The notes: a model not told the origin generated them from the sequence alone. 64,000 bases of DNA from an uncultured Candidatus Saccharibacteria bacterium (GCA_964608605.1 CAZSOS010000001.1:207452-271451), one strand, 5' to 3'. Shown: positions 4,003 to 64,000, numbered from the stretch's first letter. Program-made: numbers and translations.

Positions 4003-4145
4003 ACGGGGCTTTTTGGATGCTTGACAAAAAGACCCAAATATGCTAAGATGGTAGATAAGTAGGTTTCGGGAGTATAGTGCTTCCAAACCACCTCGTACCT
4101 TCATCAGTTCCTCAGGATTCGGTTCAAAACAGAAAGGAGCGCGTC

Positions 4146-4571: not shown

Positions 4572-4575
4572 ACTG

Positions 4576-4613
4576 AAAAAAGTGGTCGCGGATGATTCAT
4601 CCGCGACCACTAA
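4576..4613 (+). terminator. intrinsic terminator
   Basis: AGTGGTCGCGGATG-ATTC-ATCCGCGACCACT hairpin flanked by A/T runs. Confidence 0.6.
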
Positions 4614-4701
4614 AACATTCATTATGGATGTTGGCGACGAAACCATGTTTCGTCTTCATTATCCGGAATGATCCGGTAGTTACAAATTCTATCAATTATT
4701 T

Positions 4702-6381: not shown

Positions 6382-6512
6382 TCTGTCAGATCCCCACGAT
6401 CTGCCCGACCAAGGTCTACGAGCTTCCAGCGCCTACCGAGGATAGGCCAGAGCCTTACATAACCTATTATCACGACGATACTCCCCCGAACTTGCCTATA
6501 GGCGAGAAGCCC

Positions 6513-6547
6513 GACTACTTGAAGTAGTCCCACAAGTCAGACTTGTG
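6513..6547. repeat. two adjacent palindromes GACTACTTGAAGTAGTC and CACAAGTCAGACTTGTG
   Basis: Perfect odd palindromes 3' of the surface-protein gene. The second shares its core with 41265. Confidence 0.6.
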
Positions 6548-6567
6548 TAGACGGGCGGGAGCGAGAA

Positions 6568-6598
6568 AAAGCCGGACCATTTGGTCCGGCTTTTTCGT
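6568..6598. terminator. bidirectional intrinsic terminator
   Basis: AAAAAGCCGGACCATTTGGTCCGGCTTTTT. Confidence 0.75.
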
Positions 6599-6603
6599 TT
6601 TTG

Positions 6604-6742
6604 TTCTGTCATGATCGTATCATGAGAATCACTGGGCCATAGATCTTCATGATATCATCAATGATATCATGAAAAGGGCCGAGCAGATCGATCGCGTTCA
6701 CTGCGCCATGAAAAGACTAGGCGGATGATCTTACATGACAGA
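6604..6742. repeat. terminator-flanked module with clustered TCATGA palindromes and a 9-bp terminal inverted repeat (TCTGTCATG / CATGACAGA)
   Basis: Four TCATGA and two CATGA(A/C) sites within ~130 bp. The module is bounded by the terminators at 6568 and 6770. Confidence 0.4.
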
Positions 6743-6769
6743 ATATATTTATAGCACTCATCGTCCAAG

Positions 6770-6802
6770 ACAAAGGCCGGCCCCTTCGGGGCCGGCCTTT
6801 GT
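6770..6802. terminator. bidirectional intrinsic terminator
   Basis: CAAAGGCCGGCCCCTTCGGGGCCGGCCTTTG. Confidence 0.75.
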
Positions 6803-6821
6803 CTTGCCTCTGTGGCATCCG

Positions 6822-8564
6822 CTAAAGCGAACGCGCGGATACCTTGACTTTCAAGTAGTCAGCCAGCTCGTCGGCACTGTGCTCCAGCTTGCTGCCATCG
6901 CTCATTTCCAGGGTCAACTGTCCAGACTCGGCCTCCTTGTCGCCGATGACCACGAAGGCCGGGATCTTCTGTTGCTTCACCGCCCGGATCTTCTTGCCCA
7001 AGGACTCGTTGGCGTCATCCAGCATACATCTTATACCGGCCGCCTTGAGCTTCGCGTAGAGCTCGCGCGCCGGGTCATTGTGCTTCTCCGAGACCGGCAG
7101 GATGGCTACCTGCTCTGGTGCCAACCACAGCGGAAAGCGGCCGCCTAAGTGTTCGATCAAGACGGCCGAGAAACGCTCGATCGAACCCATGATGGCGCAG
7201 TGGATCATGACGATACGCTCTTTTTCGCCCGCCTCATTGATACAGGTGAGATCGAAGCGCTCCGGCAGGTTCATGTCGAGCTGGATGGTGGCCACCTGAT
7301 GCTCGCGGCCGATGGAATCCTTGGCCATGAAGTCGAGCTTGGGGCCGTACATGGCCGCTTCGCCAGGAGCTTCGAAGTAATCGGCCTGGCGCTCGCGAGC
7401 GATGTCACGGAGCGCGTTCTCGGCGTTATTCCAGATCTCTGGGGTGCCCAAGTACTTCTCCATCTCCGACGGTTCGTGGAAGGAGAGCCGGACTCGGAGC
7501 TTGAAGCCGAAGGTACCGTAGAAGGTGTCGACAATGTCCCAGATGCGGAAGAACTCTTCCTTAACCTGTCTGTGACGGCAGAACACGTGGCTATCGTCCT
7601 GAGTGATCGAAAGTACGCGGGTGAGACCGCCCAGCTCGCCTGACTGTTCGTCGCGATAGACCATGGTGGTCTCGGCGTAGCGTTGCGGCATCTCGCGATA
7701 GCTGTGCGGCTTGCGGTCGAAGATCTGCGTGTGGTGCGGACAGTTCATCGGCTTTAAAGCGTACTCCTTGCCCTCGCGGGTACTGATGCGAAAGAGTTCG
7801 TCGGCGAACTTCTCCCAGTGTCCGGAGGTCTCGTAGAGGTCCTTCTTGGTGATGTGAGGGATGGTGACCCGCTGATAGCCATGACTTTCCCGGAGCTCCC
7901 AGATGTAGGAATCAAGAGCGTGGCGCAAGACCGTGCCCTTAGTGGTCCAAAGCGGCAATCCGGCGCCGACCAGATCGGAGAAAGTGAAGAGATCGAGTTC
8001 CTTGCCGAGCTTGCGATGGTCGCGCTCTTTGGCTTCGGCCAGCTGCTTTTCGTAGGCTTCAAGCTCGTCTTTGGTCTCGAAGGCCAGGCCATAGATACGA
8101 GTCAACATGGCGTTCTGTTCGTCGCCGCGCCAATAGGCGCCGGCCACCTTGGTGAGCTTGAAGGACGCCGGGTCGATGTCCGCGGCCGGATTCTCACTAT
8201 GTCCGCCGCGACAGAGGTCCTCGAAGTCGCCGCTCTTGTAGAGAGTGATGGTCTCCCCGCTGTTCGCGATCTCCTCTATAAGCTCTAGTTTGTAGGGATT
8301 GCCCGCGAAGATGGTCCTGGCCTCCTCGGCCAAAACCTCGCGGTGAGAGAACTCCTTCCAGGCCGGCAATAGCTTCCTCATGACCTTCTCGATGGCCGGC
8401 AGATTGGCGTCGCCAACCGGTTCGCCTCCTTGGAAGTCGATGTCATAGTAAAAGCCGGTGTCGACGGCCGGACCGATGGTCAATTTGGCGTGCGGATATT
8501 TCTGCAGCACCGCCGCCGCCAAAAGGTGGGCAAGAGTGTGGCGTTTATGTTCGAGGTTGGACAT
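6822..8564 (-). CDS. thrS: threonyl-tRNA synthetase
   Basis: 580 aa with class II aaRS core and anticodon-binding domain, ThrRS-specific motifs, and the N-terminal HxxxH editing-like second additional domain. Confidence 0.95.
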   Translation of the reverse strand: MSNLEHKRHTLAHLLAAAVLQKYPHAKLTIGPAVDTGFYYDIDFQGGEPVGDANLPAIEKVMRKLLPAWKEFSHREVLAEEARTIFAGNPYKLELIEEIANSGETITLYKSGDFEDLCRGGHSENPAADIDPASFKLTKVAGAYWRGDEQNAMLTRIYGLAFETKDELEAYEKQLAEAKERDHRKLGKELDLFTFSDLVGAGLPLWTTKGTVLRHALDSYIWELRESHGYQRVTIPHITKKDLYETSGHWEKFADELFRISTREGKEYALKPMNCPHHTQIFDRKPHSYREMPQRYAETTMVYRDEQSGELGGLTRVLSITQDDSHVFCRHRQVKEEFFRIWDIVDTFYGTFGFKLRVRLSFHEPSEMEKYLGTPEIWNNAENALRDIARERQADYFEAPGEAAMYGPKLDFMAKDSIGREHQVATIQLDMNLPERFDLTCINEAGEKERIVMIHCAIMGSIERFSAVLIEHLGGRFPLWLAPEQVAILPVSEKHNDPARELYAKLKAAGIRCMLDDANESLGKKIRAVKQQKIPAFVVIGDKEAESGQLTLEMSDGSKLEHSADELADYLKVKVSARSL

Positions 8565-8566
8565 GA

Positions 8567-8880
8567 TCGAGAGGATGAATTGATAAATGGGAACGAAAAG
8601 CGCCCGGGCAAAAATTCAGGTGTCTGAATTTTTGCCCGGGCGATCTTGATCGCGGTTCCACCGGACTTCCCGTTATACTAGTCAGACTAGTATAACGGCT
8701 TATTGGACAGATTAGGCTTAAAAGCGTCCTTCGACCCATGGGTGGTAGCCACGGCAATCTCTGTTGTAAACATCATAACCGCTAGACCGCGGTCGTCAAC
8801 CCCGTTAGAGGGTACTGGCATATACCCGCAATAGACTAGTAGGTCATTAAGCACCCTGAACAGGGCTCTCTAACGGGGTC
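8567..8880 (-). promoter_or_regulatory. putative T-box leader (tRNA-Thr responsive) of thrS
   Basis: On the minus strand, GGTGGAACCGCG matches the T-box core GGUGGNACCGCG. It sits 10 nt upstream of a strong terminator hairpin (8599-8641) followed by CTTTTCG, ~30 nt before the thrS start. A long stem I (CCCCGTTAGAGAG...CTCTAACGGGG) has an ACC triplet at the 3' side of its internal loop. Confidence 0.55.
8670..8698. repeat. 29-bp perfect palindrome CCGTTATACTAGTCAGACTAGTATAACGG
   Basis: Lies inside the thrS leader. Same core as copies at 2351 and 29995. Confidence 0.7.
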
Positions 8881-11800
8881 AATAGCTTCGCGTTATCTAA
8901 GAGGATGGTCGGCTGGTCATTGCGCAGCTGCAACTTGCCCTTGACCGCCACGCAGGCGGCCGGCCGCAACACGTCCTGGAGCGCACGGTAGGTCTCGGGG
9001 AAGGCGGTCATCTCGATCTGATGGGTATGATCGACGAGCTGGATAAAGGCCATCTTGTCGCCCTTCTTAGTAAGGAGCTCGCGCACGCTTTCCACCATGC
9101 CGGCAGTGACCACACCGCCTTTCATGCGCACCACGTTGATCTCTTCCTTGTTATTGACCGCGTTCACGATCGCCCCGATCGGGATCCGCGGCGGCTTATT
9201 GAGCTCGCCTTGATACTGATCGAGCGGATGACCGGACACGTAGACGCCTAGCAGCTCCTTCTCCCAGGATAATTTCTGCGCGTCGAGGAGAGGAGCGACC
9301 GGATCGAGGCGGAGGGAGGCGGCGGCGAAGCCGCCGCCGAAAAGCGACTCCTGCGACGCCTCCTTGGCCGAGACTTCCGCCTTGTTGAAGGCGAGCAGAT
9401 TGTCGATATTTCCATACATGAGACCGCGGTCCTCGAACCGGTCCAAGGCGCCAGTCTGGATCAAGGCTTCAAGCGATTTCTTGTTCAGGTTGCGGTCGTG
9501 CACGCGGGAAAGGAAGTCGGCCAAAGAAGCGTACGGACCGTTCCGCTTCCGTTCCTCGATGATGGCTTCGGCAATGCCTTCGCCGAAATTCTTGATGGTG
9601 GTGAGACCGAAGCGGATCTTCTCCGTCCCCGGCACCACGGAGAAGTCGGCGAAGGATTCGTTGATGTCCGGCGGCAGGACTTCTAGTCCCATACGCTCGC
9701 ATTCGTGGATGATCTCGGAGATCTTCTCGGTGTCGCCCGAGTCGGCGGTCAAGACCGCCGACATGTATTCGACCGGATAGTTAGCCTTCATATAGGCCGT
9801 CTGGTAGGCCACGCGGCCGTAACTGGCGGCGTGCGCCTTGTTGAAGCCGTAAGCGGCGAACGGCTCGATCAATTTCCACAGCTGATCGGCCTTTTGAGGC
9901 GTAAGCTTGCCTTTCTCCACGAAGCCCTTTAAGAGCTTCTCCTTCTCGGCCTCCATCACCTCCGGGATCTTCTTACCCATGGCCTTGCGGAGCTTGTCGG
10001 CGTCGAGCCAGGAGTATCCGGCCAGGGTAATGGCCGTCATCATGACGTCGTCTTGGTAGGTGATCACGCCATAGGAGCGATCGAGGATGGTCTCGAGCCG
10101 GGGGTCGAGATACGAGACCAGGGCCGGATTATGCTTGCGCTCGATGTACTGCGGGATCGACTCCATCGGGCCCGGGCGATAGAGAGCCACCATGGCGTTG
10201 ATGTCGTGGATGGTCGACGGCCGGAGCTGCTTCAAGAAGGCCGTCATGCCGGTGCCGTTCAGCTGGAACAGGCCCATCGTCTCGCCGCGCGCCAGCATCT
10301 CGAAGGTCAGCTTGTCGTCGAGCGGAATGTTCTCGATGTCCACCTCGATGCCGCGGATCTTGCGCACGCGCCGGACGGCGTCAGCCAGGATGGCCAGGTT
10401 CTTGATACCCAGGAAGTCGAACTTGAGGAGTCCGACGCCGTCCTCGCCGACCGAGCGCATCTCGTATTGAGTGATCAGCTTGCCGGTCTTCGGGTCGGGC
10501 TGCACCGGCACGAAGTGATTCAAGGGTTCCGGCGCGATGACGACGCCGGCGGCGTGCACTCCCAGGTGCCGCACGCGTCCTTCGATCATCTTCGCCAAGT
10601 CGATCACCTCGCGCACTTCCGATTCGCCCTTGTATATCTTAGAGAGCTCCGGCTCGATCTCCAGAGCCTTCTTGATGGTCATGGGAAAGCCCTGGCTGCC
10701 CATGGGGATCAGCTTGGCCACCCGGTCGCCGACCGAGTATGCGTGGCCCAAGGCTCGGGCCACGTCGCGCACGGCGGCACGGGCCATCATGGTGCCGAAG
10801 GTACCGATCTGCGCCACCTTGTCCTCGCCGTACTTCTCTTTGGCGTACTCGATGATCTCGTCGCGCCGATTATCGGCGTAGTCCATGTCGATATCGGGAG
10901 CCGAAGGGCGCTCCGGGTTCAAGAACCGCTCGAAGGGAAGCTTGTATTCAAGCGGATCCACGTTGGTGATGCCCAAGACGTAGGTAGTGAGACTGCCGGC
11001 CACCGAACCGCGGATGGTTGTCAGGATCGCGCGTTCCCGCGCCTCGCGCAGCAGGTCGCCCACCACCAGGAAGTACTTGGCGTAGCCCTTCATCTTGATG
11101 ACCTCGAGCTCGTAGTCGAGGCGGGTCTTCACCTCAACATCATCGAGTGACAGCCCGCGCCAGGCGACTCCTTTGTAGGCCAGTTCCTTCAGCTCATCGT
11201 CCGGCTCCTGGCCGCTCTCGATGATGTAGTTAGGGAAGTACCAGACCGTGCCGATGGGGATCTCCACGTTGCAGGCCTCGGCCACCTTCACCGTGTTAGC
11301 GACCGCTTCCGGCACGTCGGCCATCCGCCGCTTCATCTCCTCTTGAGTGAGGAAGGAAAAGTCCTCGGCCTCATCCAGCGCGCCGCTTAAGTCCACCACG
11401 CCGCCGTTTTGGATCTTCACCATGGTCTCGCGGGCCACGCGGTCTTCCGGACGCAGATAGTACACGTCGTGCGCCGCCAAAAGCGGCACGCCCGTCTTCC
11501 GGGCTAGTTCCTTTATCCTCTCCTGATTCTCGTTATGATCGAGGATCTCCGGATGGTTCGTGATCTCCAAGTAGCAATCCTCGCCGAACACTTGCCGGTA
11601 CCAATCCAGGCGCTCGCCGGCTCTCTCGGCGTTCCTATCCTTCAAAGCCTGCGCCACCTCGCCGGCGAAAGAGGGAATGATGGCGATCAGGTCCTCCCGG
11701 TGGCGTTCCAGAAGCTCTTGGTCAAGACGGGGTCGATAGTAGAAGCCGTCGATGTAGGAACGGGTGACCAGCTCGATCAGATTACGGTAGCCGTTGTTGT

Positions 11801-43748: not shown

Positions 43749-44996
43749 TTATGCAAATCTGTCTGTAATTTTATCCAAATTGCCCGACACTTCTGTGCCA
43801 TCTGCAAGATTCCTGAGCACGTACTCGCCGCGTGCCACTTCGTCCTCACCGACCACCAGAATGTGTCCGGCGCCGGAATGATCAGCCGCGGCGATCTTCT
43901 TGCCAAGCTTCTTCGAAGAGATGTCCACCAGCACGGCCACGCCGGCATCCCGGAATTTCATCGCCGCCTTCTCGGCATCGAGGTTGAAGCCGGCTTCGGT
44001 CGGGATCACAATCAATTGCGCGCCGGCCTTCCTTTGCGGCAACAACCCGTGCGTCTCCAGGAAATCCCGCATGGTCACGTCGCCCATGCCGAAGCCGACG
44101 CCACCAATCTTCTCCTCTCCGAACAAGGAAGTGAGGTTGTCATAGCGGCCGCCGCCAAGCATCGAGCGATTATTCTTGGGGTCAGTATCGAATACCTCGA
44201 AGATAGTGCCGGTGTAGTAGTCGAAACCACGGGCCAAAGACCGATCGATCCTCACGTTGGTGATGCCGAGCTTCATCAAGGCTTTGGTGATCTCGTTCTC
44301 TGAGTCATCGGCACCTTCCACGAACCGCAAGATCTTGTCGGCCGCTTCGGGAGCCAGAGCCCGCAATCCTTCCAGATACTCGGCCCTCTCGATCTTATGG
44401 AAACGGTCGTTAAGACGGGTGATGGCGGTCATGGTGTCGACATCCTCCACGCCGACGCTTTTGTAGAAATTCGCCATCTCGCGCCGGTCGTTGACGGCGA
44501 TGGAGAACATCTCCGGACGAGCGCCGAAGTTTATCAGTGTCTGGTATGCCAGCGCGATAATCTCCACGTCGGCGGCGATATCATCCGACCCGAAGATGTC
44601 ACAGTTGAGCTGCCAGTGCTCGCGCACCCGGCCGCGCTGTGAGCGCTCGTAACGGAAAAGATTCGGGATCGAGTACCAGCGAGCCGGGAAGGCCAGTTCC
44701 TTGTGGCGACCGGCGATCATGCGCGCCACTGTCGGCGTCATCTCCGGCCGCAGCGTCACTTCGCGCTCGCCGCGGTCCAGGAAGGTATAGGTCTGTTCAT
44801 TGACCATCTCCTCGTTCTCGGCACCCTTGCTCTTGTAGAGTTCTGAAGGCTCCAGGACCGACGCGTCATAGCGCTCGAAGCCGAAACTTTCGGCCGTCCG
44901 ACTCCAAGTGTCAAAGATATGCTGTTGTACCGCCATATCCTCCGGATAAAAATCCCGCACGCCTTTGTACGGTTCGGTAGAGAGTTTAGAAGCCAT
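43749..44996 (-). CDS. hisS: histidyl-tRNA synthetase
   Basis: Class II motifs and the GGGRYDNL motif 3 region. 415 aa. Confidence 0.93.
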   Translation of the reverse strand: MASKLSTEPYKGVRDFYPEDMAVQQHIFDTWSRTAESFGFERYDASVLEPSELYKSKGAENEEMVNEQTYTFLDRGEREVTLRPEMTPTVARMIAGRHKELAFPARWYSIPNLFRYERSQRGRVREHWQLNCDIFGSDDIAADVEIIALAYQTLINFGARPEMFSIAVNDRREMANFYKSVGVEDVDTMTAITRLNDRFHKIERAEYLEGLRALAPEAADKILRFVEGADDSENEITKALMKLGITNVRIDRSLARGFDYYTGTIFEVFDTDPKNNRSMLGGGRYDNLTSLFGEEKIGGVGFGMGDVTMRDFLETHGLLPQRKAGAQLIVIPTEAGFNLDAEKAAMKFRDAGVAVLVDISSKKLGKKIAAADHSGAGHILVVGEDEVARGEYVLRNLADGTEVSGNLDKITDRFA

Positions 44997-45063
44997 AATT
45001 TAGTAGATTGTATGGTATTAGACCCCAATAAACAAGTTCGAATAACCCCATTGAAATCATTGG

Positions 45064-48000
45064 TTGTCTATGTATAATTCGCACATAATGAACGGCAAGA
45101 ATGTTACTGCCGCCGTACTGGTCGCTATACTCAGTGTCGGCCAGATCGCCTACGGAGCGACCGAAATATCTGAAGACATAGAGGGTGATATCACCTGGAC
45201 CGTTGCCAATAGTCCGTATATAGTCACTACCAACATAGGCTTCAGCCCTATCACTCCCGGCGCGACGCTTACAATAGAACCGGGGGTTGAGGTTAAATTT
45301 TCTCCTAATGCCAGTATCAGCATATTTGGCAATCTGATATCGAAAGGGGATGAAAACATGCCCATAAAATTCACTTCAACGGAACCCGACACTGCTTGGA
45401 GAATCAATATTTTTGACTCCCAAAATAGTGAATTACTCCATATCATCAACGGCTCCACTCTGGGTGGCATCGCGTCATACAATTCAAACATTCACGCGCG
45501 CGACCTCTCCGGCGACAGTGAGCTGATGTTGTTTGACGGAACCTCTGATCTTAAAGATATTTCTTTCACGAACAACAGGCTTTTTATCAACGGTGGATCG
45601 ACGATCATCAATGACCTAAATATCATCGGCGGTGGCGCGAGTTTTTTCGATACTAACGTCACGCTTCAAAACGCCAATATCAGCCATACAAATTCTTCTC
45701 CCGCCATCATCACTTCCGATCGAGCGGTCAGTTTTAATAACGTATACATAAACAACGCCGAGCATGGCATTATCGCCAGCAACGTACCTAACCTACAGCT
45801 ACATAACGCGGTCATTTCGAACGTTGTCAATAATGGACTGACCTTCGATGGAGGGTTGGCTAATTTGTCCAATGTATCCATAGAAAATTCCTACTATGGC
45901 GCCGGTCTTCAGGGCAGTCAGATATCCCTAGACGATCTCCATATTAATAATATCCAAGCCCCGGCGTTGCAGGTTAATGCTGATCTGACCAATATCTCCA
46001 ATTCTTCCTTCGCGAATGGTGCCAATACCGGCGTGAGTGTCAGCGGCGCGTCAGCCGAACTGCAAAATGTCACGATCACTGGTTTTCCAAACGCGCCAGC
46101 GCTATTGCCAAGTACCGCGAGCCTTCACGGCCAGCAATTGACTCTAAAGAACAACCTGATCGGTATTTATAACTACTCATCCGGCACCACCACTATCAGG
46201 CAAAGCAATATCAGCGACAATACCCAATTCGGAGCCATTGGCAGTAGAAGTGTATTAGATGCCAGAAATAACTTCTGGGGACACGCGGCCGGGCCGACAA
46301 CCGGCGACACTGGAAATCCTGAAACCATCATCAAAGGTGACGCGGTCGTAGGCAATGTGATGTATGAACCTTGGTTGGAGGAGTTCTGTGAATCCGCCTG
46401 TCATTCTAATATCATGTTTTTGCCGGGGATCATGTCATCTCGATTGTATGATGGGAGCGAACAACTTTGGGAGCCGGGGATATTCACCCGCGACAGAGAA
46501 TTTGAAGCGTTGTATCTGGACGCGGCTGGCAAAAGCATCCGCGATATTCATACGAAAGACGTGCTTGATAACGGCTATGCCTACGGCAAGCTCGTAGAAG
46601 ACCTGAATGAACTTAAAGCTGCTGGAACCATCAACGACTACGAGGCTGTGCCGTACGACTGGCGACTGTCGATAGAAGATATTTTAAATACCGGTACAAA
46701 GCGTGAAGACGGCTCTATCATCTATGGTAGCGCTACCTCAGAACCATATATTGAGAGCGCTCTCCGTCGCCTAGCCGCCAATTCCAAATCAGGCAAAGTG
46801 ACCATCATAGCGCACTCCAACGGCGGACTGGTCACCAAAGCCCTAATAAACCGCCTCAACAGTGAGGCGTCCGACCTTATCGATAAGGTTATCTTCGTCG
46901 CCGTCCCGCAACTCGGCACGCCGCAAGCTATCGGTGCCTTGCTTCACGGCTACAACGCCGGACAACCCGGCTTGTATCCGTTCATACTATCGCCAGAGCG
47001 CGCTCGGGACCTGGCCATCAATATGCCAATGATTTATCAGCTCATGCCGTTCGCTGATTATTACAATAGCGACGGCGCAACTATTTATACGCCTTATGTA
47101 AGCTTTGAGGACAGTGCCGCAACACAGTCATTCATAGACAAGTATGGGTACGACGTTAGACACGAACATTTGTATTCTTTCCTCATTGGTTCCGAAGGTC
47201 GCTCAACTCCAGCCTACGATGATAGAGAAAATCCAGCCCTAGCCAACGCAACGCTATTGGCCGAAGCCCAAACATTGCAGCAAGTCATCGATTCTTCCTG
47301 GACGGTCCCGGAGGGAATTGAGGTACACCAAATCGCTGGCGTTGGTGAGAGAACCTTGGCAGGCATTATCTATCAAACTTTCCCCGACTGCACAGAACGT
47401 GATTTCTTATTCCGCTGCCAACAATATGATAATCGTCTTACTTATTACCCAAACACGGTTATCGATGGCGATGGGACTGTAGTAGTACCTAGCGCGCTGG
47501 CAATGAGTACCACTAGCGATTCTGTGAAGAGGTGGTGGTTGAACTTACAGTCTTACAATGGAGCAACACCGAGTTTTTTGAGAGAGCAACACTCTGACAT
47601 ACTTGAAGTGGACGAATTGCGTCGTTTCATCATGGAAAATCTCCTTAAAGACGACCTGGCCAGTACACCAATCTTTATATCTTCTTCTGCTCCATACTTG
47701 GAACAGGGTAACCGTCTGGTCTTCACCCTCCATTCTCCGCTCGCACTTTCAGCCACCGACGAGCACGGGAATATAACCAACGAACAAGAAACCAGCATCC
47801 CCGGCGCTACCTACACCCGCTATGGCGAAGTTCAGGTTATCACAGTACCGACAGGCACCAAATTCACCCTGGTTCTCACTGGCGAAGCTGAAGGATCATT
47901 CACTCTGGAAATGGAGGAGTTCGAGGGTGACGACTTGGTGGATATCAGCACCTTCTCGGCCATACCTTCCAGCACCGATACTCTGGCTACCATCTTTTTC

Positions 48001-48369
48001 ACTGATGGTTCTCTGGAAAATGTGGGCGAACTGCAAATAGATCACAACGGCGACTCCATCGTAGACCTCACCTACACGCCGATACTCGGCGAGACAGTAA
48101 CCGCGCCCGACCCCATCGCCATGATCGTGGAGCGAATTATTTTAGGTGGTAGTAGCGGAGGTTCGCTACCGCTCGGCCGCGTGCTCGGAGTTTCTGATAA
48201 CACGCTCACTCTTGAACAACTGGCCCATATCGTCAAACAGTTACATATTGTCGTGACTGCACTCTCTCACCTAAGGGGCCAAATACCCGAAGAACAGTAT
48301 GCGACAATCTCTGGCCAAGTCCTCACGATATTAAGCACACTTGAGATGTTGCTACAGAGTAAAAGTTAG
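45064..48369 (+). CDS. large secreted protein: N-terminal parallel beta-helix repeats fused to an LCAT/PGAP1-like alpha/beta-hydrolase (lipase/acyltransferase) domain
   Basis: Signal peptide. PbH1-like repeats (NVxISN...). Central FLPGIMSSRLYDG, YDWR and IIAHSNGGLV motifs characteristic of the LCAT-like lipase family. GC is lower than in neighbouring genes. Confidence 0.75.
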   Translation: MSMYNSHIMNGKNVTAAVLVAILSVGQIAYGATEISEDIEGDITWTVANSPYIVTTNIGFSPITPGATLTIEPGVEVKFSPNASISIFGNLISKGDENMPIKFTSTEPDTAWRINIFDSQNSELLHIINGSTLGGIASYNSNIHARDLSGDSELMLFDGTSDLKDISFTNNRLFINGGSTIINDLNIIGGGASFFDTNVTLQNANISHTNSSPAIITSDRAVSFNNVYINNAEHGIIASNVPNLQLHNAVISNVVNNGLTFDGGLANLSNVSIENSYYGAGLQGSQISLDDLHINNIQAPALQVNADLTNISNSSFANGANTGVSVSGASAELQNVTITGFPNAPALLPSTASLHGQQLTLKNNLIGIYNYSSGTTTIRQSNISDNTQFGAIGSRSVLDARNNFWGHAAGPTTGDTGNPETIIKGDAVVGNVMYEPWLEEFCESACHSNIMFLPGIMSSRLYDGSEQLWEPGIFTRDREFEALYLDAAGKSIRDIHTKDVLDNGYAYGKLVEDLNELKAAGTINDYEAVPYDWRLSIEDILNTGTKREDGSIIYGSATSEPYIESALRRLAANSKSGKVTIIAHSNGGLVTKALINRLNSEASDLIDKVIFVAVPQLGTPQAIGALLHGYNAGQPGLYPFILSPERARDLAINMPMIYQLMPFADYYNSDGATIYTPYVSFEDSAATQSFIDKYGYDVRHEHLYSFLIGSEGRSTPAYDDRENPALANATLLAEAQTLQQVIDSSWTVPEGIEVHQIAGVGERTLAGIIYQTFPDCTERDFLFRCQQYDNRLTYYPNTVIDGDGTVVVPSALAMSTTSDSVKRWWLNLQSYNGATPSFLREQHSDILEVDELRRFIMENLLKDDLASTPIFISSSAPYLEQGNRLVFTLHSPLALSATDEHGNITNEQETSIPGATYTRYGEVQVITVPTGTKFTLVLTGEAEGSFTLEMEEFEGDDLVDISTFSAIPSSTDTLATIFFTDGSLENVGELQIDHNGDSIVDLTYTPILGETVTAPDPIAMIVERIILGGSSGGSLPLGRVLGVSDNTLTLEQLAHIVKQLHIVVTALSHLRGQIPEEQYATISGQVLTILSTLEMLLQSKS

Positions 48370-58914: not shown

Positions 58915-59031
58915 AGGGCGATTTTAACACGACGGGCCAGGAGGGGCGGCGGCTCCGCCGCCGCCCCGTTTGCCTATCCTCCAAAAACCAGTATATTTCG
59001 ATCAGTTTGATCAAATTCGCAGGAGTCTAAA

Positions 59032-59874
59032 ATGCTACGGATAATGTTCCTTAACACCTGGGGCGGGGAATTGTGGGAGGAACTGCGCTGGTACGTCACC
59101 ACGCAAGTACAAAAATTCGACGTGATTTGCCTCACCGAGGTGCATCATTTGCCCGGTGCCAAAGACGCGTTCATAACCCCAACGCTTCCCGGTAGCCGTA
59201 AGAGCGACATATTCGCATGTCAGTTCGAAGCTCTTTGCAAACTGCTGCCCAAGCATGTCGGCTACTACACCGCGCATGGCGAATTCATGTTGCATGATCT
59301 GGAGCGTCATGAGTCTCCGATAAAATATGGCAACGCCATGTTCATCTCGCGCCATTTGTCCCACTTCATCAGCACCGGCATGGTGTTTGGCCAATACAAT
59401 CGGTCCTCGGCCGGCTGGCCGGCGCCTAGGTCGATACAAGGAGTGACCTTCAGGAAAGGAAACGACGCGTACGCGGTGGCGCACTTCCACGGTGTCTGGA
59501 CCGGAGGCCCAAAAGAAGACACCGAGGACCGTTATCGCCAGTCGATAAATGCCGACGCCTTCGTCACCGACCTTGCTCTCAAGTCGCGGAGCGTGTTCAA
59601 TATCCAACCAAAAGTGATCATCGGAGGCGACTTTAACCTCACTTCGAAAACCACTTCGCTCCGCATGTTGGCCAAAAGCAAGGCATTCGACCAGCGAGGC
59701 CGGATACTGAACCACGAGTTCGGCGTCACGGACACCAGGACCAGCCACTATGCTAAAGAGGTCCGGGAAGCCGACTTCGCTCTGGTGTCTCCAAGCGTCA
59801 AAGTTTTTTCCTTCACGGCACCGGCCGAACCGGAGATCTCCGATCATCGGCCGCTCATTCTCGAGTGCGAGTGA
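59032..59874 (+). CDS. endonuclease/exonuclease/phosphatase (EEP) family protein
   Basis: N-terminal LNTWGG, GGDFNL and C-terminal SDHRPL motifs. Confidence 0.75.
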   Translation: MLRIMFLNTWGGELWEELRWYVTTQVQKFDVICLTEVHHLPGAKDAFITPTLPGSRKSDIFACQFEALCKLLPKHVGYYTAHGEFMLHDLERHESPIKYGNAMFISRHLSHFISTGMVFGQYNRSSAGWPAPRSIQGVTFRKGNDAYAVAHFHGVWTGGPKEDTEDRYRQSINADAFVTDLALKSRSVFNIQPKVIIGGDFNLTSKTTSLRMLAKSKAFDQRGRILNHEFGVTDTRTSHYAKEVREADFALVSPSVKVFSFTAPAEPEISDHRPLILECE

Positions 59875-59886
59875 TCAGACGCCAAC

Positions 59887-59920
59887 TGGCGGCCCACCTG
59901 GGCCGCCAGTTTTCTTCTTC
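59887..59920 (+). terminator. intrinsic terminator
   Basis: CTGGCGGCCCACCTGGGCCGCCAG followed by TTTTCTTCTTC. Confidence 0.7.
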
Positions 59921-59961
59921 TCAGTTCAGGATTTATCTGCTATATTTGAGCGCATTCTATC

Positions 59962-60032
59962 GGGCCCATAGTATAGCGGTAGAACGCCTCCATGGCATGG
60001 AGGAGGTCGGGGTTCGACTCCCCGTGGGTCCA
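59962..60032 (+). tRNA. tRNA-Ala (anticodon GGC)
   Basis: Hand-folded. Acceptor GGGCCCA/TGGGTCC with G3:U70. Anticodon loop ATGGCAT. T-arm GGGGTTCGACTCCCC. Discriminator A. No encoded CCA. The D-stem has one A-A mismatch. Confidence 0.7.
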
Positions 60033-60050
60033 CGCGGTTATGGTATTTCG

Positions 60051-60070
60051 GTGGTAGTGTTCGCGATTCG
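60051..60070 (+). repeat. 20-bp exact duplicate of the tRNA-Pro D-loop/anticodon-stem segment (GTGGTAGTGTTCGCGATTCG)
   Basis: Identical to 60101-60120 inside tRNA-Pro. Lies 17 nt upstream of the intact gene. Confidence 0.7.
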
Positions 60071-60086
60071 AGATAAAACGCATTGT

Positions 60087-60157
60087 CGGGCCGTAGCATA
60101 GTGGTAGTGTTCGCGATTCGGGTTCGCGAGGTCCGAGTTCGATTCTCGGCGGCCCGA
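60087..60157 (+). tRNA. tRNA-Pro (anticodon CGG)
   Basis: Hand-folded. C1:G72 acceptor CGGGCCG/CGGCCCG with A73, as is typical of bacterial tRNA-Pro. Anticodon stem-loop CGCGA-TTCGGGT-TCGCG. T-arm CCGAG-TTCGATT-CTCGG. Confidence 0.75.
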
Positions 60158-60209
60158 CAATGTGTTGTATCGGAAGTCCCGGGGACTTCCGTGGCTACAA
60201 CGAAGGTGT

Positions 60210-60237
60210 GGTCCGAGTTCGATTCTCAGTGGGCCAG
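60210..60237 (+). pseudogene. tRNA 3'-half fragment (T-arm plus partial acceptor) duplicated from tRNA-Pro
   Basis: GGTCCGAGTTCGATTCTC is identical to 60130-60147. No matching 5' acceptor strand is present. Preceded by the CGGAAGTCCC/GGGACTTCCG hairpin. Confidence 0.6.
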
Positions 60238-60239
60238 CA

Positions 60240-60557
60240 TCAGATTTTGATGAGTCCTTCATGTATTTCCATATGGCAATTAGCACACACGAGGATACAC
60301 TTCTCGACCTCAGCCTTTGTTTTTTCCCAAGAACGAGTCAAACCTCTGGACGATAAACCGAAATCTTTTTTGCTAGGGTCGGTGTGGTGAAATGATAAAG
60401 CACGTTTACATTTCGCATAACCACACATTCGGCATTTACCACCTCCGTACTCAATAGCCATATCCTTGAGTTTCTTTCGCCTCTTTATAACGGCCGCTTT
60501 TATATATTCGGCCCTGTCCGCATAAGTTCTTTTTTCAATTCTTCGTGGCATATACAC
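60240..60557 (-). CDS. HNH endonuclease (105 aa, free-standing)
   Basis: GTG start. CRMCGY...HH-DP...CANCHMEIH HNH/zinc-finger motif. Wedged between tRNA fragments and the intron-bearing tRNA-Asn. Confidence 0.8.
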   Translation of the reverse strand: MYMPRRIEKRTYADRAEYIKAAVIKRRKKLKDMAIEYGGGKCRMCGYAKCKRALSFHHTDPSKKDFGLSSRGLTRSWEKTKAEVEKCILVCANCHMEIHEGLIKI

Positions 60558-60657
60558 ATGTATTCTACCACAATAATCATGCTTGAATATTGAAAGAATG
60601 TGGATTTTCTGTAGAATAGACGCAACTTGGTCGATATCGCCGATCCAAGTAGTACAT

Positions 60658-61007
60658 TCCCCTGTAGCTCAGCGGTAGAGCAGTCGACTGTATGTATTGC
60701 AGCTTCCTAGGGAAACCTAGGTCGAAAAGAAGGTGAATTGTCCGAAGCGCGCAAGCGCAACGGATCCGGAACCGCAAGGTTCTAGGACTGGAAACCCAAA
60801 CGTGTAGTCGTGGGCAATCAGCAGCCAAGTCCTCAGAGTAATCTAAGGAAAGGTTCAGAGACTATCCCTAACGGGAGTAGCCGAGCAAGAAATTGCTCCA
60901 GGCGAAGCGCCTTCCACCCCTTTCGGGTGATGATATAGTCCACGCCCTTTGGAAACATCGGGATCAGTGTAATCGATTGGTCGCAGGTTCGAATCCTGCC
61001 GGGGGAG
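60658..61007 (+). tRNA. tRNA-Asn (anticodon GUU) interrupted by a group I intron between positions 35 and 36
   Basis: The 5' exon TCCCCTGTAGCTCAGCGGTAGAGCAGTCGACTGT and the 3' exon TAATCGATTGGTCGCAGGTTCGAATCCTGCCGGGGGAG splice to a canonical Asn tRNA (U1:A72, G73, loop CUGUUAA) closely matching E. coli tRNA-Asn. Confidence 0.8.
60692..60969 (+). ncRNA. group I self-splicing intron (278 nt, no ORF)
   Basis: R element GTTCAGAGACTA at 60853-60864 and S-like GATATAGTCC at 60933-60942, giving P7 GACUA/UAGUC. The 5' exon ends in U and pairs with IGS GCAG through a U-G wobble. The intron ends in G. Confidence 0.75.
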
Positions 61008-61008
61008 C

Positions 61009-61045
61009 AAATGAAAAAGCACCGTTTTGGTGCTTTTTCATTTGC
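61009..61045 (+). terminator. intrinsic terminator
   Basis: AAATGAAAAAGCACC-GTTTT-GGTGCTTTTTCATTT. Confidence 0.75.
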
Positions 61046-61192
61046 GAGCCCGGAGAAAGTGCCAGTGGCACTTTCGTCAGGATTCGAAGACCTTGCCAGA
61101 TATTTTGTGACGCAAAGAAACAAAATATCGACAAGGTGTACCGCCCATGTAATGGGAGAAATTCCTGCCGGGGAGCTGAGGTATAATTTTAT

Positions 61193-61699
61193 ATGTTAGG
61201 TTTTGTATCTATGGAATTTTTAATACTTTCCCTCGTAATACTAGGAGTAGTGGTACTGGCAGTAGTTACATTAAAGCTCTTTTCAATATCAAAGACCGAC
61301 CAACCACTCCCTTACCGAGCTAAACAATATTTCTTTTCTCGCTCGGAGCAAGAGTTTCTTAGAATTTTAAACGAATCACTCGATAGGCAACGCTTTGTGA
61401 TTTTTCCAAAAGTGAGACTTGCTGACTTTATAGAAGTGACTATTAGAGGACGTGAGTACCAAGGTTGGTTGAGTAAAATTAAATCAAAGCATGTCGACTT
61501 TCTAATTTGGGATGTTAAAAATCACAAAATAGCCTTAGCAGTTGAGTTAGACGGTAAATCCCACAACATTGAACCTATGCAAACAAGAGATGAGTTTGTT
61601 AACCGGCTATATGACAAGGTGGAAATAAGATTAGTAAGAGTCAAAGTAGGTAGCAATTTCTTGACAGAAGCAAAAATTATATCTGAATCTTTAAGTTAA
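61193..61699 (+). CDS. DUF2726-like (restriction-endonuclease-fold) membrane-anchored protein
   Basis: AT-rich. N-terminal TM, then FPKVRLADFI...HVDFLIWDV...LAVELDGKSH, which resembles the DUF2726/NERD-like nuclease fold. Confidence 0.6.
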   Translation: MLGFVSMEFLILSLVILGVVVLAVVTLKLFSISKTDQPLPYRAKQYFFSRSEQEFLRILNESLDRQRFVIFPKVRLADFIEVTIRGREYQGWLSKIKSKHVDFLIWDVKNHKIALAVELDGKSHNIEPMQTRDEFVNRLYDKVEIRLVRVKVGSNFLTEAKIISESLS

Positions 61700-61741
61700 T
61701 TAGACTGAGGCGTATACTAAGCACAATAAAACTTCTGGCTG

Positions 61742-62791
61742 ATGAAAAAGGAATTCCCTGAATTTTATAGTTTAAGTAAAGACGAGATAACCGCACTATG
61801 GGAGGGGTGCATATTCGCTTTTGATGCAAATGTCCTTCTTAATCTCTACAGATATTCTCTAGACACTAGCGATAATCTAATCTCAATCTTAAAAAATTTC
61901 TCCGACCGCATTTGGATGCCACACCAGTTCGCTCTTGAGTACCAAAGGAATCGAATGGTGGTGATAGAAGGTCAGCGGGTTAAGTACATGGGGAGTATAA
62001 AGAATATTCTAGGTGAACTGGAGGTCGTAGAGGAACTCCTAGGTAACTACTACGGGAAAATGCCTTTTGACATCAAGAAGATAAAGAATGATTTGTTGAA
62101 GTCTCAGGAAGAGTACCCTGGATGCACATCAGAGGACAAAATGCGGGAGGAAATCGACGCACTTTTCGAGAATAAGGTAGGTAGTCCTTTCGACGAAAAA
62201 AGAATGCTCGCAGTGATAGACGAGGGCAAAGAAAGATACCAAAAAGAAATGCCGCCGGGTTACTGCGACGCGTTAGAAAAAGATAAGAATGATCCCACTA
62301 AGACTCGGAAATATGGAGACCTTATTGGGTGGCTTCAAATGATCGAGAAAGCTAAAACCGAGAAGAAACCCCTTGTATTTATCACCAGTGAGCGAAAGGA
62401 AGACTGGTGGCAAATCGTAAAGGGAAAAACTGTTGGTCCTAGGCACGAATTATTGAAAGAGTTTCAGAAAGAAACTGGAGAAGCATTTCATATGTATGAT
62501 ATGAAACGCTTTCTTGACTATGCGAAAGAAAAACACACAGTCAAAAAGAAAACTATTGATGAAGTTATAAAAATTGATGAAGTGTATAATAACAGCGTCG
62601 CAAGTGAACTTGGGGTAGTTGTTGGTGGTGATACTCCCACTTTGTCAGACTATCTAGTGAACCCTGTAGGTTGGCCAATTACGGAAGCATCATCACAAAC
62701 TTCATCTGTGGAAAAGGAGTCCGCTTGGATTATTGTGCCAGAAAATGATGACGGCACAGGAAATCTGGCAACAGGTGACAGGGAACAATGA
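61742..62791 (+). CDS. PIN-like domain protein (DUF4935-type) with uncharacterised C-terminal half
   Basis: AT-rich. N-terminal IFAFDANVLLNLY (PIN strand 1 Asp), YGDLIGW and ITSERKEDWW acidic positions. 349 aa. Confidence 0.6.
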   Translation: MKKEFPEFYSLSKDEITALWEGCIFAFDANVLLNLYRYSLDTSDNLISILKNFSDRIWMPHQFALEYQRNRMVVIEGQRVKYMGSIKNILGELEVVEELLGNYYGKMPFDIKKIKNDLLKSQEEYPGCTSEDKMREEIDALFENKVGSPFDEKRMLAVIDEGKERYQKEMPPGYCDALEKDKNDPTKTRKYGDLIGWLQMIEKAKTEKKPLVFITSERKEDWWQIVKGKTVGPRHELLKEFQKETGEAFHMYDMKRFLDYAKEKHTVKKKTIDEVIKIDEVYNNSVASELGVVVGGDTPTLSDYLVNPVGWPITEASSQTSSVEKESAWIIVPENDDGTGNLATGDREQ

Positions 62792-62795
62792 ATCT

Positions 62796-63074
62796 ATGAA
62801 GACTTATTTGATAACATACGACTTAATTAAGCCGGAAACTAGCGCGGATTACGTAAAGCTTTTCGCTAATATAAAATCACATCTTGGCTGGGCCAAGCCC
62901 ATGAGATCAGTCTGGTTGATAAAAACTAACAGGTCTAGGGATGAAATCATGAAATTGTTGAGATCAGCAGGTGACAGCAATGATAAATTTTTAGTGATGG
63001 AAGTTACAAGGGAATGGATAGCTTTTAACCTTCCAGCAAGTGTCATTACATGGATGAAGGATGAGATTAAATAA
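62796..63074 (+). CDS. small alpha/beta protein (93 aa), translationally coupled partner of the PIN-like gene
   Basis: Its ATG overlaps the upstream TGA (ATGA). MKTYLITYDL...DYVKLFANIKSHLGWAKPMRSVWLIK resembles the beta1-alpha1-beta2 pattern of Cas2/VapD-like folds, but there is no CRISPR context. Confidence 0.5.
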   Translation: MKTYLITYDLIKPETSADYVKLFANIKSHLGWAKPMRSVWLIKTNRSRDEIMKLLRSAGDSNDKFLVMEVTREWIAFNLPASVITWMKDEIK

Positions 63075-63202
63075 TTTATTAAGATTTTAGTTGTTTATAA
63101 AAGTTCTAACGTCCTCCCAAGCGGTGAGCCAATAAAATCACCTTATTTTACAAGGTGATTTTTTGATATCCAAATAGGGTTCAGAACTGATATAATAAAA
63201 AT

Positions 63203-63598
63203 ATGAAATTAGATGCAATAAGCGTAACCAGCACAGACTTAGAAAAATCAGCCAAGTTCTATTCCTTACTAGGTTTTACTTTCCCTACATTTGGGAAGGA
63301 TGAAAAACATATAGAACCCCAAACAAAAAATGGCGAGGTGAGACTTATGATAGATACTGCTGATTTGATTGAAAGTATCACTGGCTCAAAACCAGTGCCT
63401 CCAAATCATTCTTCGTTTGCAATACTGTGTGAGCAACCTTCAAAAGTAGACGAGGTCTGTATAAAAATAAAAAATGAAGGGTTTGTTGTCATAAAAGAAC
63501 CTTGGGATGCATTTTGGGGACAAAGGTATGCAATTGTTCAAGACCCAGATGGTTATATGATTGATTTATTTGCACCGCTAGAAAATAGTACCACTTAG
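63203..63598 (+). CDS. VOC/glyoxalase-bleomycin resistance family protein
   Basis: 131 aa with the glyoxalase-like beta-alpha-beta-beta-beta module pattern. AT-rich. Confidence 0.7.
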   Translation: MKLDAISVTSTDLEKSAKFYSLLGFTFPTFGKDEKHIEPQTKNGEVRLMIDTADLIESITGSKPVPPNHSSFAILCEQPSKVDEVCIKIKNEGFVVIKEPWDAFWGQRYAIVQDPDGYMIDLFAPLENSTT

Positions 63599-63861
63599 TT
63601 CTGAAGAGCAATCTCCGAAAACATTTCAGAAATCTTAGAGTACTCAATATCTCTTTTAATTTGAACCCAATTGAGAGTTCTGAATGCGTCCACTAGAGGG
63701 AGCTAGTGAAAAAGACCCTTACAAAGGTCTTTTTCGTTTGCTCCGTGGGAGAGAATCCTCTCGGAAAGTTTTCATACGTGTTACCAAACCGCCGATATTT
63801 CCCCAAGAAATACTTACCGAAGCTGAATCCTTGCCACCCTGAAGTGTTAAAATAATTAACA

Positions 63862-64000
63862 ATGAAAGATATCTTTAAACTCGCCGCCGCCATCGCGATC
63901 TCCGAATTCGCCGGCATCATCGGTTCGGCGTTCACCGTTCCGGCCATTCCGGCGTGGTATGCGACTCTCAATAAGCCCGCTCTCAACCCACCCAGCTGGA
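63862..64000 (+). CDS. TspO/MBR family protein (5' partial, runs off the window end)
   Basis: AWYATLNKPALNPPSW matches the conserved TspO N-terminal motif. GC returns to the chassis level here. Confidence 0.6.
   Translation, partial: MKDIFKLAAAIAISEFAGIIGSAFTVPAIPAWYATLNKPALNPPSW

Follow-up and report, generated by a model that had tools for sequence, protein, structure and literature searches.

A putative array of small gene cassettes at an intron-containing tRNA-Asn gene in Patescibacteria

In this study, we examined an AT-rich stretch of about 2.7 kb that lies behind a tRNA-Asn gene in an uncultured Candidatus Saccharibacteria bacterium (GCA_964608605.1 CAZSOS010000001.1:207452-271451; the window below is this full 64 kb) and that we interpret, with a probability of roughly 0.7, as an array of non-autonomous cassettes that was acquired horizontally and occupies a tRNA-Asn attachment hotspot in a genome of Parcubacteria type among the Patescibacteria (Candidate Phyla Radiation, CPR). 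Among described systems, the tycheposons of Prochlorococcus offer the nearest architecture; these measure 10-20 kb, and 27 of 937 surveyed elements carry a large serine recombinase (LSR) (Hackl et al., bioRxiv 10.1101/2020.12.28.424599). Like the locus and its relatives, tycheposons are site-specific at tRNA genes, combine an integrase, a replication module and cargo, inhabit streamlined genomes, form tandem insertions parted by partial tRNA copies, newer ones pushing older ones inward, and leave integrase-less remnants. The elements that we found at this tRNA in related genomes have an inward-facing LSR at one end, an adjoining replication (Rep) gene, cargo and tRNA-like separators, while the window copy is without the hallmark genes; the comparison with tycheposons is thus one of architecture alone. 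Several features differ from tycheposons: the integrase of the relatives is an LSR and their replication gene an HUH Viral_Rep with a superfamily-3 helicase; the units in the window measure 0.58 and 1.95 kb; these units are parted not by clean partial tRNAs but by diverged tRNA mimics with GAGC at the end; and the host belongs to the Patescibacteria, with an intron-containing tRNA as the target.

Three further systems invite comparison. In the staphylococcal cassette chromosome (SCC) and pseudo-SCC units, the CcrAB LSR inserts units of tens of kb at the 3' end of rlmH/orfX. The likeness is one of layout, with a single conserved gene 3' end, short direct repeats for each unit and recombinase-less units movable in trans; unlike SCC, the target in the window is a tRNA gene and the units hold one or three genes. 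Integrons join the tyrosine recombinase IntI and an attI site to cassettes that end in imperfect palindromic attC sites. Here the analogy lies in very small, mostly single-gene units with a terminal recombination site, a fixed chromosomal position and identical cassettes between genomes. Neither IntI nor attI occurs among the called genes of the window end and of the compared contigs L002-L007, L021 and L028-L037 (L-numbers denote compared contigs or loci, largely from metagenomes), and the terminal motif, which matches the T-loop and acceptor strand of the tRNA, lacks self-complementarity, so it is no attC; unlike integron cassettes, those of the window appear to carry their own -10 boxes (61182 and 63191), and the array is anchored on a tRNA gene. 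Lastly, the cis-mobilizable elements (CIMEs) of Streptococcus, which accrete with integrative elements (for integrative and mobilizable elements, IMEs, see PMC5704250), are integrase-less units flanked by attachment sites. What they have in common with our units is descent from, or parasitism on, an autonomous integrative element at the same site; unlike CIMEs, the window is without conjugation or mobilization genes, its units are far smaller, and a different recombinase class is presumed. Of the traits by which tRNA-linked islands are classically recognized, deviant composition, a tRNA 3' end with repeats and variable presence are all found here, and an integrase of its own is missing. By kind, therefore, the locus is an ordinary tRNA-linked island remnant; what sets it apart from tycheposons, SCC, CIMEs and integrons are its host, the intron-containing tRNA-Asn target, the presumed LSR and HUH Rep, the tiny cassettes and the tRNA-mimic site.

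A preceding sequence-only reading of the window had proposed a drop in GC content behind the tRNA that ends at the TspO gene, and this is borne out. In 300-nt windows GC content ranges from 0.33 to 0.45 between about 61,050 and 63,860, against a mean of 0.566 (sd 0.053) over the first 60 kb, where just 13 of 398 windows fall below 0.45; for the whole island the value is 0.387. Composition recovers at TspO (63862-64000, the right flank of the chassis; Pfam TspO_MBR E 2.5e-6), whose open reading frame (ORF) starts at ATG 63862 and whose N-terminus has a GC content at third codon positions (GC3) of 0.72. Codon usage deviates from the host likewise: GC3 is 0.31, 0.42, 0.43 and 0.28 in the four island genes (DUF2726, PIN_8, a small partner of PIN_8, and VOC), compared with a mean of 0.709 (sd 0.083, minimum 0.54) in 44 chassis ORFs. 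A 1-kb GC profile shows no comparable dip elsewhere in the window and one mild other dip at 45-46 kb; there, GC content is 0.45-0.47 over 44750-46250, and ORF 45064-48369 (1101 aa) has the lowest chassis GC3, 0.54. Since GC and GC3 deviate and since the matches of the two cassettes lie on low-GC contigs (37-43% and 35-45%), a foreign origin is indicated. Neither of the conditions that the sequence-only reading had named as refuting it holds: composition varies, and the genes show no conserved synteny combined with chassis-like codon usage. The direct repeat of the tRNA 3' end that had been predicted near the far edge also exists: GGGAGCAAATGAAAAAG (61003-61019) recurs as GGGAGCTAGTGAAAAAG (63698-63714), and the 17-mer, with up to two mismatches, has three matches in the window against 0.03 expected by chance. 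As that reading had stated, no integrase is encoded: tblastn of the 64-kb window gave no relative of the serine recombinase or Rep, and the island ORFs hold no recombinase domain.

Along the window, all on the plus strand, we find the tRNA-Asn gene with its attachment site R0, a conserved segment S1 ending in a site R1, cassette 1, R2, cassette 2, R3, an S1-like remnant and TspO. Insertion at the tRNA 3' end, as the sequence-only reading had suggested, is supported by a swap of cargo behind R1 in L021, by LSR elements at tRNA-Asn and by copies of the VOC unit that abut other tRNA-Asn genes. The claim of an island directly downstream of tRNA-Asn is thus supported, the island starting at 61009 right behind the tRNA, but needs refinement: it is not a single island, since at least two cassettes and a conserved leader are present, and what the first cassette adjoins is the secondary tRNA-like site R1 rather than the tRNA itself.

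Evidence for a discrete, mobile unit comes from cassette 2 (63130-63703), about 0.58 kb long and delimited by identity to nine contigs. It comprises a hairpin (63134-63163), a TATAAT box (63191-63196), a gene for a VOC/glyoxalase-fold protein of 131 aa (63203-63598; Pfam PF00903 E 3.5e-14) and R3. An identical VOC protein is encoded on 16 other contigs, and at the DNA level window positions 63126-63703 are 98.8-99.8% identical to the nine contigs (L028-L033 and L035-L037, 35-45% GC), homology starting at 63119/63126 and stopping at 63703-63718. On the left of the unit, six contigs (L028, L030, L032, L033, L035 and L037) have the 3' end of a different, intron-less tRNA-Asn(GTT), with the junction ...GGTTCGAGTCCTACTCGCG/GAGCCAATAAAATC (slashes mark junctions); ARAGORN confirms this tRNA in the three contigs scanned (L028, L033 and L035). 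In L036 the left junction is the motif of another cassette and in L029 a variant of the motif. On the right, the break always follows GGGAGC and leads into four different flanks, that of L035 being S1-like. The VOC unit is thus discrete and occurs in at least four other genomic contexts. As its near-identical copies break at GAGC, a recombinase-less, single-gene unit has been placed very recently at the same tetranucleotide in several genomes.

Cassette 1 (61177-63129, about 1.95 kb) holds a TATAAT box (61182-61187), three genes with GC3 of 0.31-0.43, and R2, and was delimited by its identity to L002-L007; its left junction is confirmed by an independent assembly, L107. Positions 61320-63078 are 70-76% identical to the cargo half of elements with a recombinase and Rep on these contigs, which belong to related Parcubacteria (37-43% GC). 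Given this value and the 98.8-99.8% of the VOC unit, the two cassettes have separate histories. In L003, L004 and L006, and partly in L002, L005 and L007, an insertion of about 5.1 kb has the three genes as its right half. Its left half, on the opposite strand, encodes an LSR of 480-540 aa (Resolvase, Recombinase and Zn_ribbon_recom domains; PHROG integrase E 1.7e-83), a Viral_Rep/RNA_helicase protein and a small ORF, followed by a hairpin-rich intergenic region; we regard this region as a probable origin and the Rep as an HUH protein with a superfamily-3 helicase. The insertion starts right after the tRNA-Asn 3' end (...CCCGCGGAGCA/TTTTCGAAAAAG) and ends at AGTTCTAACATCCTCCCAGACGGCGAGCA/TATAAAAG, so that in L003, L004 and L006 the element runs from the tRNA ...GGAGCA to ...GACGGCGAGCA and is followed by S1. 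As the motif at the right end can be aligned with the T-loop and acceptor strand of the tRNA (GGTTCGAATCCTGCC..GGAGCA), it is a tRNA mimic. In L011 (Ca. Nomurabacteria) the tRNA runs directly into the downstream S1 sequence (...CCCGCGGAGCA/TATAAAATC); this contig is thus without the element at tRNA-Asn, which places the crossover in GAGCA. Overall, the elements and cassettes of the relatives join precisely at the GAGC(A) of the tRNA.

The closest syntenic relative, L021 (49% GC), shares with the window the region 55.1-61.09 kb, including tRNA-Pro, an HNH gene and the intron-containing tRNA-Asn, and then the 168 nt of S1; behind R1 it has a 176-aa ORF and the terminal motif in place of the window cargo (the available stretch ends in a ParB-like gene). 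Content thus varies among relatives, with L021, L011 and L003 all differing after R1. The window and the LSR elements of the L002-L007 type have cargo genes and terminal motif in common, and the LSR, the Viral_Rep/helicase and the origin region of these elements are absent from the window, where DUF2726 starts within 35 nt of R1. The LSR ORFs of L003 (3335-4948, minus strand) and L006 (6166-7785, minus strand) run through the attachment junction into the antisense of tRNA exon 2 and the intron, their last ~37 residues matching window 61010-60900; either excision would alter the C-terminus, or the ORFs have been called too long. A viral origin was considered and rejected, since IMG/VR held no relatives or matches for the Rep, the LSR or the left end of the VOC cassette.

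Of the sites themselves, R0 is part of tRNA exon 2 (60970-61008), with the discriminator G at 61007 and the GAGC core at 61005-61008, as read from the sequence and its relatives. S1 (61009-61176) is a gene-less segment of 168 nt recognized by similarity to relatives: it has 79% contiguous identity to L011 and occurs also in L021, L003, L002, L004 and L035 (L021 5934-6120; L011 5912-6084, minus strand; L003 8568-8743; L035 about 909-1053). The stem of a terminator hairpin (60999-61053) takes in the tRNA 3' end, and at 61041-61088 S1 repeats the acceptor strand and T-loop of the tRNA in inverted orientation, interrupted by a hairpin of ~24 nt (inverted repeats I2 and I15). At its end, R1 (61156-61176, GAGAAATTCCTGCCGGGGAGC) is a direct tRNA-3'-like site; an ungapped search missed it owing to a 1-nt deletion, and it is supported by an alignment of four lineages, in all of which similarity ends directly after the GAGC of R1 and different content follows. 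Both the inverted copy and R1 co-vary with the host tRNA over three acceptor-stem variants (CCGGGGGAGC, CCCGCGGAGC and TCGCGGAGC), for which RNA structure, a folded attachment site and gene conversion are candidate causes.

Each unit ends in a mimic of ~28 nt of the tRNA-Asn T-loop and acceptor 3' end, finishing in GAGC, and every homology break falls at the GAGC of such a motif. In the window these are R2 (63102-63129, AGTTCTAACGTCCTCCCAAGCGGTGAGC; nhmmer E 1e-10), the end of cassette 1, and R3 (63676-63703, AGTTCTGAATGCGTCCACTAGAGGGAGC; nhmmer E 7e-6), the end of cassette 2. R2 and R3 differ by indels, so that an ungapped degenerate pattern failed where an nhmmer profile succeeded; over the 64-kb window the profile finds two copies only, both within the island. 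In every VOC context homology breaks off on the right at R3, which shares a direct repeat (D5) with the tRNA 3' end. Elsewhere, copies of the motif stand behind the partner gene (L002-L005), behind the 176-aa ORF next to R1 (L021) and at the end of L006. In L002, a contig of a Parcubacteria metagenome-assembled genome (MAG), six motif copies lie at 5208-11789, beyond the LSR-Rep element, behind successive gene blocks (a 79-aa ORF; epimerase, DUF218 and Germane; a 200-aa ORF; a 242-aa ORF; 174-aa and 195-aa ORFs), some of them followed by S1-like starts, which makes it a longer array of the same kind. Beyond R3, a partial S1-like copy (63704-63760), recognized by hairpin I4 and by similarity to 61009-61053, consists of a terminator hairpin (63706-63738) and TTTGCTCCGTGGG; in L035 the VOC cassette is followed by a similar flank of S1 type. 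The copy in the window is probably the displaced original sequence downstream of the tRNA.

How would such an array form? In the mechanism that we favor, units would circularize and recombine at GAGC between the tRNA, or the preceding mimic, and their own mimic, and the LSR of the ~5-kb autonomous element would catalyze this movement in trans. Cassette 1 may have lost its recombinase, Rep and origin by deletion while integrated at R1, or may have arrived as a cargo-only unit. More tentatively, and at odds we would put at well below even, this could amount to a tRNA-Asn-anchored gene-cassette system in Patescibacteria, integron-like in function, with the window as a two-cassette array.

Several observations weigh against our interpretation. 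No recombinase is encoded in the window or seen beside most VOC copies, which lie on short contigs; the link between LSR and cassettes is therefore one of co-location at the same type of site. LSR sites normally share just a 2-bp core and require both half-sites, and a junction of attL type does not normally serve as a substrate for another integration; tandem growth therefore requires an additional assumption. The three genes of the relatives stand between the tRNA and S1, but those of the window follow S1 and R1; with the trio on opposite sides of S1, a second site or a rearrangement must be assumed. The deletion origin of cassette 1 is untraceable because upstream homology begins ~20 nt before ATG 61211. 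Finally, counts from a consensus scan for promoters and terminators did not exceed those of shuffled controls, and the scan found neither TATAAT box (61182, 63191), so the cassette promoters rest on reading by eye.

Among other explanations, the one that survives best invokes an HUH Rep or another single-strand DNA enzyme that moves units 3' of GAGC, in the manner of IS200/IS605 "peel and paste" or of attC, with the tRNA mimic and nearby hairpins as folded recognition sites. Each junction can indeed be written as the insertion, just 3' of GAGC, of a unit with a terminal GAGC of its own, the sites have conserved hairpins on their flanks (I2, I4 and 63134-63163 at the left end of cassette 2), the inverted tRNA-end copy in S1 co-varies with the tRNA as for a folded site, and the autonomous elements encode Viral_Rep with a helicase. 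Yet proteins of the Viral_Rep/superfamily-3 helicase type serve in replication initiation and are not known as transposases, the elements carry a full-length LSR that is a simpler integrase candidate, no Y1 transposase (TnpA) is present, and the motif is not palindromic in the attC manner; we consider this explanation unlikely. Still less probable is that a single ordinary element entered once at tRNA-Asn and decayed in place, with VOC and the internal repeats as parts of it. Integrase-less decayed islands are common, composition is low throughout, and the outer repeats (61003-61019 and 63698-63714) bracket the whole 2.7 kb; against this, the VOC segment alone recurs elsewhere and breaks precisely at R2 and R3, which largely refutes a single entry, the relatives of cassette 1 are only 70-76% identical, pointing to differing histories, and S1 is native-like in relatives. 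Separately assembled contigs from three sequencing runs are 100% identical to the window over 58941-60341, 61026-61983 and 63148-64000. An assembly or binning chimera of low-GC contigs joined at shared tRNA-like repeats, suggested by the metagenomic origin of the contig, by VOC cassettes in several genomes from the same kinds of sample, by independent short-read contigs that break near repeats (at 61026 and 63148) and by the lack of an independent contig across the 63129/63130 junction, has a negligible chance of being right, since L107 covers S1, R1, DUF2726 and the start of PIN_8, and L034 covers VOC, R3 and the high-GC TspO, both at 100% identity, and since R1 and the R3 flank match the host tRNA variant CCGGGG(G)AGC and not the CCCGCGGAGC of low-GC relatives.

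The cassette array as we interpret it carries four genes, and the protein families named by the sequence-only reading agree with Pfam, the coupled small partner having no match there. The first gene of cassette 1 (61211-61699) encodes a DUF2726 protein (Pfam PF10881 E 2.5e-23) with an N-terminal transmembrane helix and a restriction-endonuclease or PD-(D/E)XK fold. An alternative ATG lies upstream at 61193; the L003 orthologue (72% identity) starts MESFVAL, and the true start is probably ATG 61211, which fits the MES/MEF start of orthologues. The family has been placed in the PD-(D/E)XK superfamily (PMC3424549) and has been noted in the vicinity of mobile elements and in fusions with sensor domains of Abi type (PMC3424549, PMC3710099). 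Its role as an obligatory third component was rejected, as L008 and L013-L019 have PIN_8 and partner without it and with other, dissimilar neighbors; it may act as an accessory membrane-anchored nuclease with a restriction-endonuclease fold. VOC may be a protein of small-molecule detoxification or binding.

The second gene (61742-62791) encodes a PIN-like nuclease of the PIN_8 family (Pfam PF18476 E 7.4e-53), with a core of residues 1-285 and a disordered tail (286-349). Across 26 homologues D28, N30, E66, D132, D176, D193 and D221 are invariant, so the acidic active-site residues (D28, E66, D193, D221) are intact. Its AlphaFold2 (AF2) model (predicted local distance difference test, pLDDT, 80) shows a PIN core with long helical inserts and gives weak Foldseek matches to VapC, FitB and PAE2754. 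A large protein database holds 845 relatives, the closest (56-83% identity) in low-GC (37-43%) contigs from groundwater metagenomes; relatives also occur on 71 plasmids, in one phage record and on 69 IMG/VR contigs. PIN_8 has been classed as a cluster of "function unknown" in the VapC structural group (PMC5499597).

Translationally coupled to PIN_8, with its ATG at 62796, 4 nt past the PIN_8 stop, is the gene for the 92-aa partner (62796-63074; phrog_1090 E 1.8e-22), a protein with a predicted Cas2-like ferredoxin fold. Its AF2 model (pLDDT 71.5) has the order beta-alpha-beta-beta-alpha-beta, with Cas2 and GhoS as top Foldseek matches (E ~1e-3, TM-score 0.5-0.6), and Y8-D9 are invariant after strand 1. 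Neither Pfam nor NCBIfam has a match, so it is no member of the Cas2 sequence families. An identity as a CRISPR-associated Cas2 was rejected, since there is no family match, cas1 or CRISPR array nearby (59-64 kb holds no CRISPR or tandem repeat arrays) and the likeness is at the level of fold only. A search of the PDB by sequence gave no solved structure for PIN_8 or the partner. Relatives of the partner number 17 among word-indexed proteins (57-90% identity), and a profile search gave 2,187 cluster representatives, nearly all of ~90 aa. That it might be a split-off C-terminal domain of a longer PIN_8 was rejected: its profile against 120 PIN_8 homologues gave a best E of 0.07, at the wrong position. 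Relatives with 33-40% identity occur in temperate phages (GQ478085, phiFL2B gp05; KT429161, a StB20-like "cas2"; MK416011; AJ512682, the P2-EC53 Z-region), solitary, in lysogeny-control regions or variable hotspots of P2 type, and annotated as Cas2, SinR or hypothetical.

The partner stands directly after PIN_8 at every Parcubacteria locus compared, in three unrelated contexts, and an IMG/VR contig (L058, 3300031372_000072) has it in reversed order (3705-3992), just upstream of PIN_8 (4001-4870); this argues for a functional pair. L058 is the sole one of the 69 viral PIN_8 contigs with an ORF of the partner family. The reading that we prefer for the cargo, though at well below even odds, is that the two form a two-protein nuclease module for addiction or defense, of a toxin-antitoxin or abortive kind. 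Such a module would stabilize the element, and the cargo would therefore outlive a lost recombinase. It would be VapBC-like in coupling a PIN-fold nuclease with intact acidic residues to a protein of ~90 aa on mobile DNA, and among small ferredoxin-fold proteins (Cas2, VapD, GhoS) the predicted fold of the partner is nearest to Cas2 and the antitoxin GhoS. Unlike VapBC, the partner lies downstream of PIN_8, has no helix-turn-helix (HTH), ribbon-helix-helix (RHH) or AbrB DNA-binding domain and is more conserved than the nuclease; unlike VapC, PIN_8 is two to three times larger, with long helical inserts. Counting against a pair or module are the 68 of 69 viral PIN_8 genes without a partner, the mostly solitary relatives of the partner, its conservation (57-90%, above the 56-83% of PIN_8), which is unusual for an antitoxin, and the modest Cas2 fold match. 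A known defense system was rejected, as none of the four island proteins matched a PADLOC-DB 2.0 family at E <= 0.1; to label the content as defense or stress, as the sequence-only reading did, is a guess.

The target of these insertions is an interrupted gene. ARAGORN reports tRNA-Ala(GGC) and tRNA-Pro(CGG) only in the window and overlooks tRNA-Asn(GUU) because a group I intron of 278 nt splits the gene. Exon 1 (60658-60691) ends ...GACTGT at tRNA position 35 and is conserved in aligned relatives; the intron (60692-60969), in the anticodon loop at position 35/36, ends in G. It is recognized by Rfam RF00028 at 60667-60962 (53 bits against a gathering score of 50, E 1.2e-11). The exons are placed at 60658-60691 and 60970-61007 because an intron-less, otherwise matching tRNA-Asn in L022 matches both contiguously. 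A consensus scan located the tRNA promoter at 60590-60617. The intron is conserved in L003, L004, L006, L010, L011 and L012. The neighboring EEP protein, as a synteny query, gave no relatives in the genome-contig scan, and an intron DNA pattern was used instead; an exact-pattern scan with this segment led to genomes that bear the labels Ca. Campbellbacteria, Ca. Nomurabacteria and Patescibacteria, and the window accordingly belongs to a comparatively GC-rich member of this radiation. In Patescibacteria, group I introns have been published for tRNA-Asn, at position 35/36, and also for tRNA-Asp (Nakagawa et al. 2026, PMC13011429); ours is equal to them in tRNA, insertion position, phylum and escape from standard tRNA finders, and that report makes no mention of integrases, recombinases or islands at tRNA-Asn.

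Further small insertions may surround this gene. A free-standing HNH gene of 105 aa (60240-60557, minus strand; GC 0.42, GC3 0.40; PHROG HNH E 1e-27) has counterparts in L021 (5158-5475) and L020 (2525-2845), so that HNH adjoins the intron-containing tRNA-Asn in three lineages, on the opposite side of the tRNA in L020; the gene could encode a homing endonuclease that acts on the intron in trans, or it could be a small insertion of its own. In L010 (Ca. Campbellbacteria) the ORF of a LAGLIDADG endonuclease (353-1018) ends where similarity to tRNA-Asn and intron begins (position 1015). Fragments of tRNA-Pro(CGG) are duplicated around that gene (60051-60070, 60101-60120, 60130-60155 and 60210-60235), one being an exact 20-nt copy of the D-arm/anticodon-stem region, 50 nt upstream, and another an 88% copy of the 3' end, 80 nt downstream and abutting the HNH stop. 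They look like scars of earlier insertions at tRNA-Pro.

Gene exchange is poorly understood in the ultra-small, host-dependent Patescibacteria, and this locus offers a concrete, testable answer. Its point of insertion is resolved to the base (GAGC at the 3' end of tRNA-Asn), its terminal motif is recognizable, an element of ~5 kb with LSR and Rep is a candidate driver, and the near identity of the 0.58-kb cassette in several genomes of differing GC content indicates recent transfer. It also draws attention to PIN_8 nucleases and Cas2-like proteins that recur as pairs on mobile DNA. Should the cassette model be false, the locus is an ordinary integrase-less island remnant. If it is true, promoter-bearing units of one to three genes with tRNA-Asn mimics of ~28 nt would stack behind the tRNA and swap between species, minimal LSR and HUH Rep elements of ~5 kb would mobilize them in trans, and S1 would be part of the attachment site. 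Compact serine-recombinase/att-site pairs of possible use as tools would then be at hand, and trans-mobilized cassettes would be a new path along which genes travel in a major radiation of bacteria.

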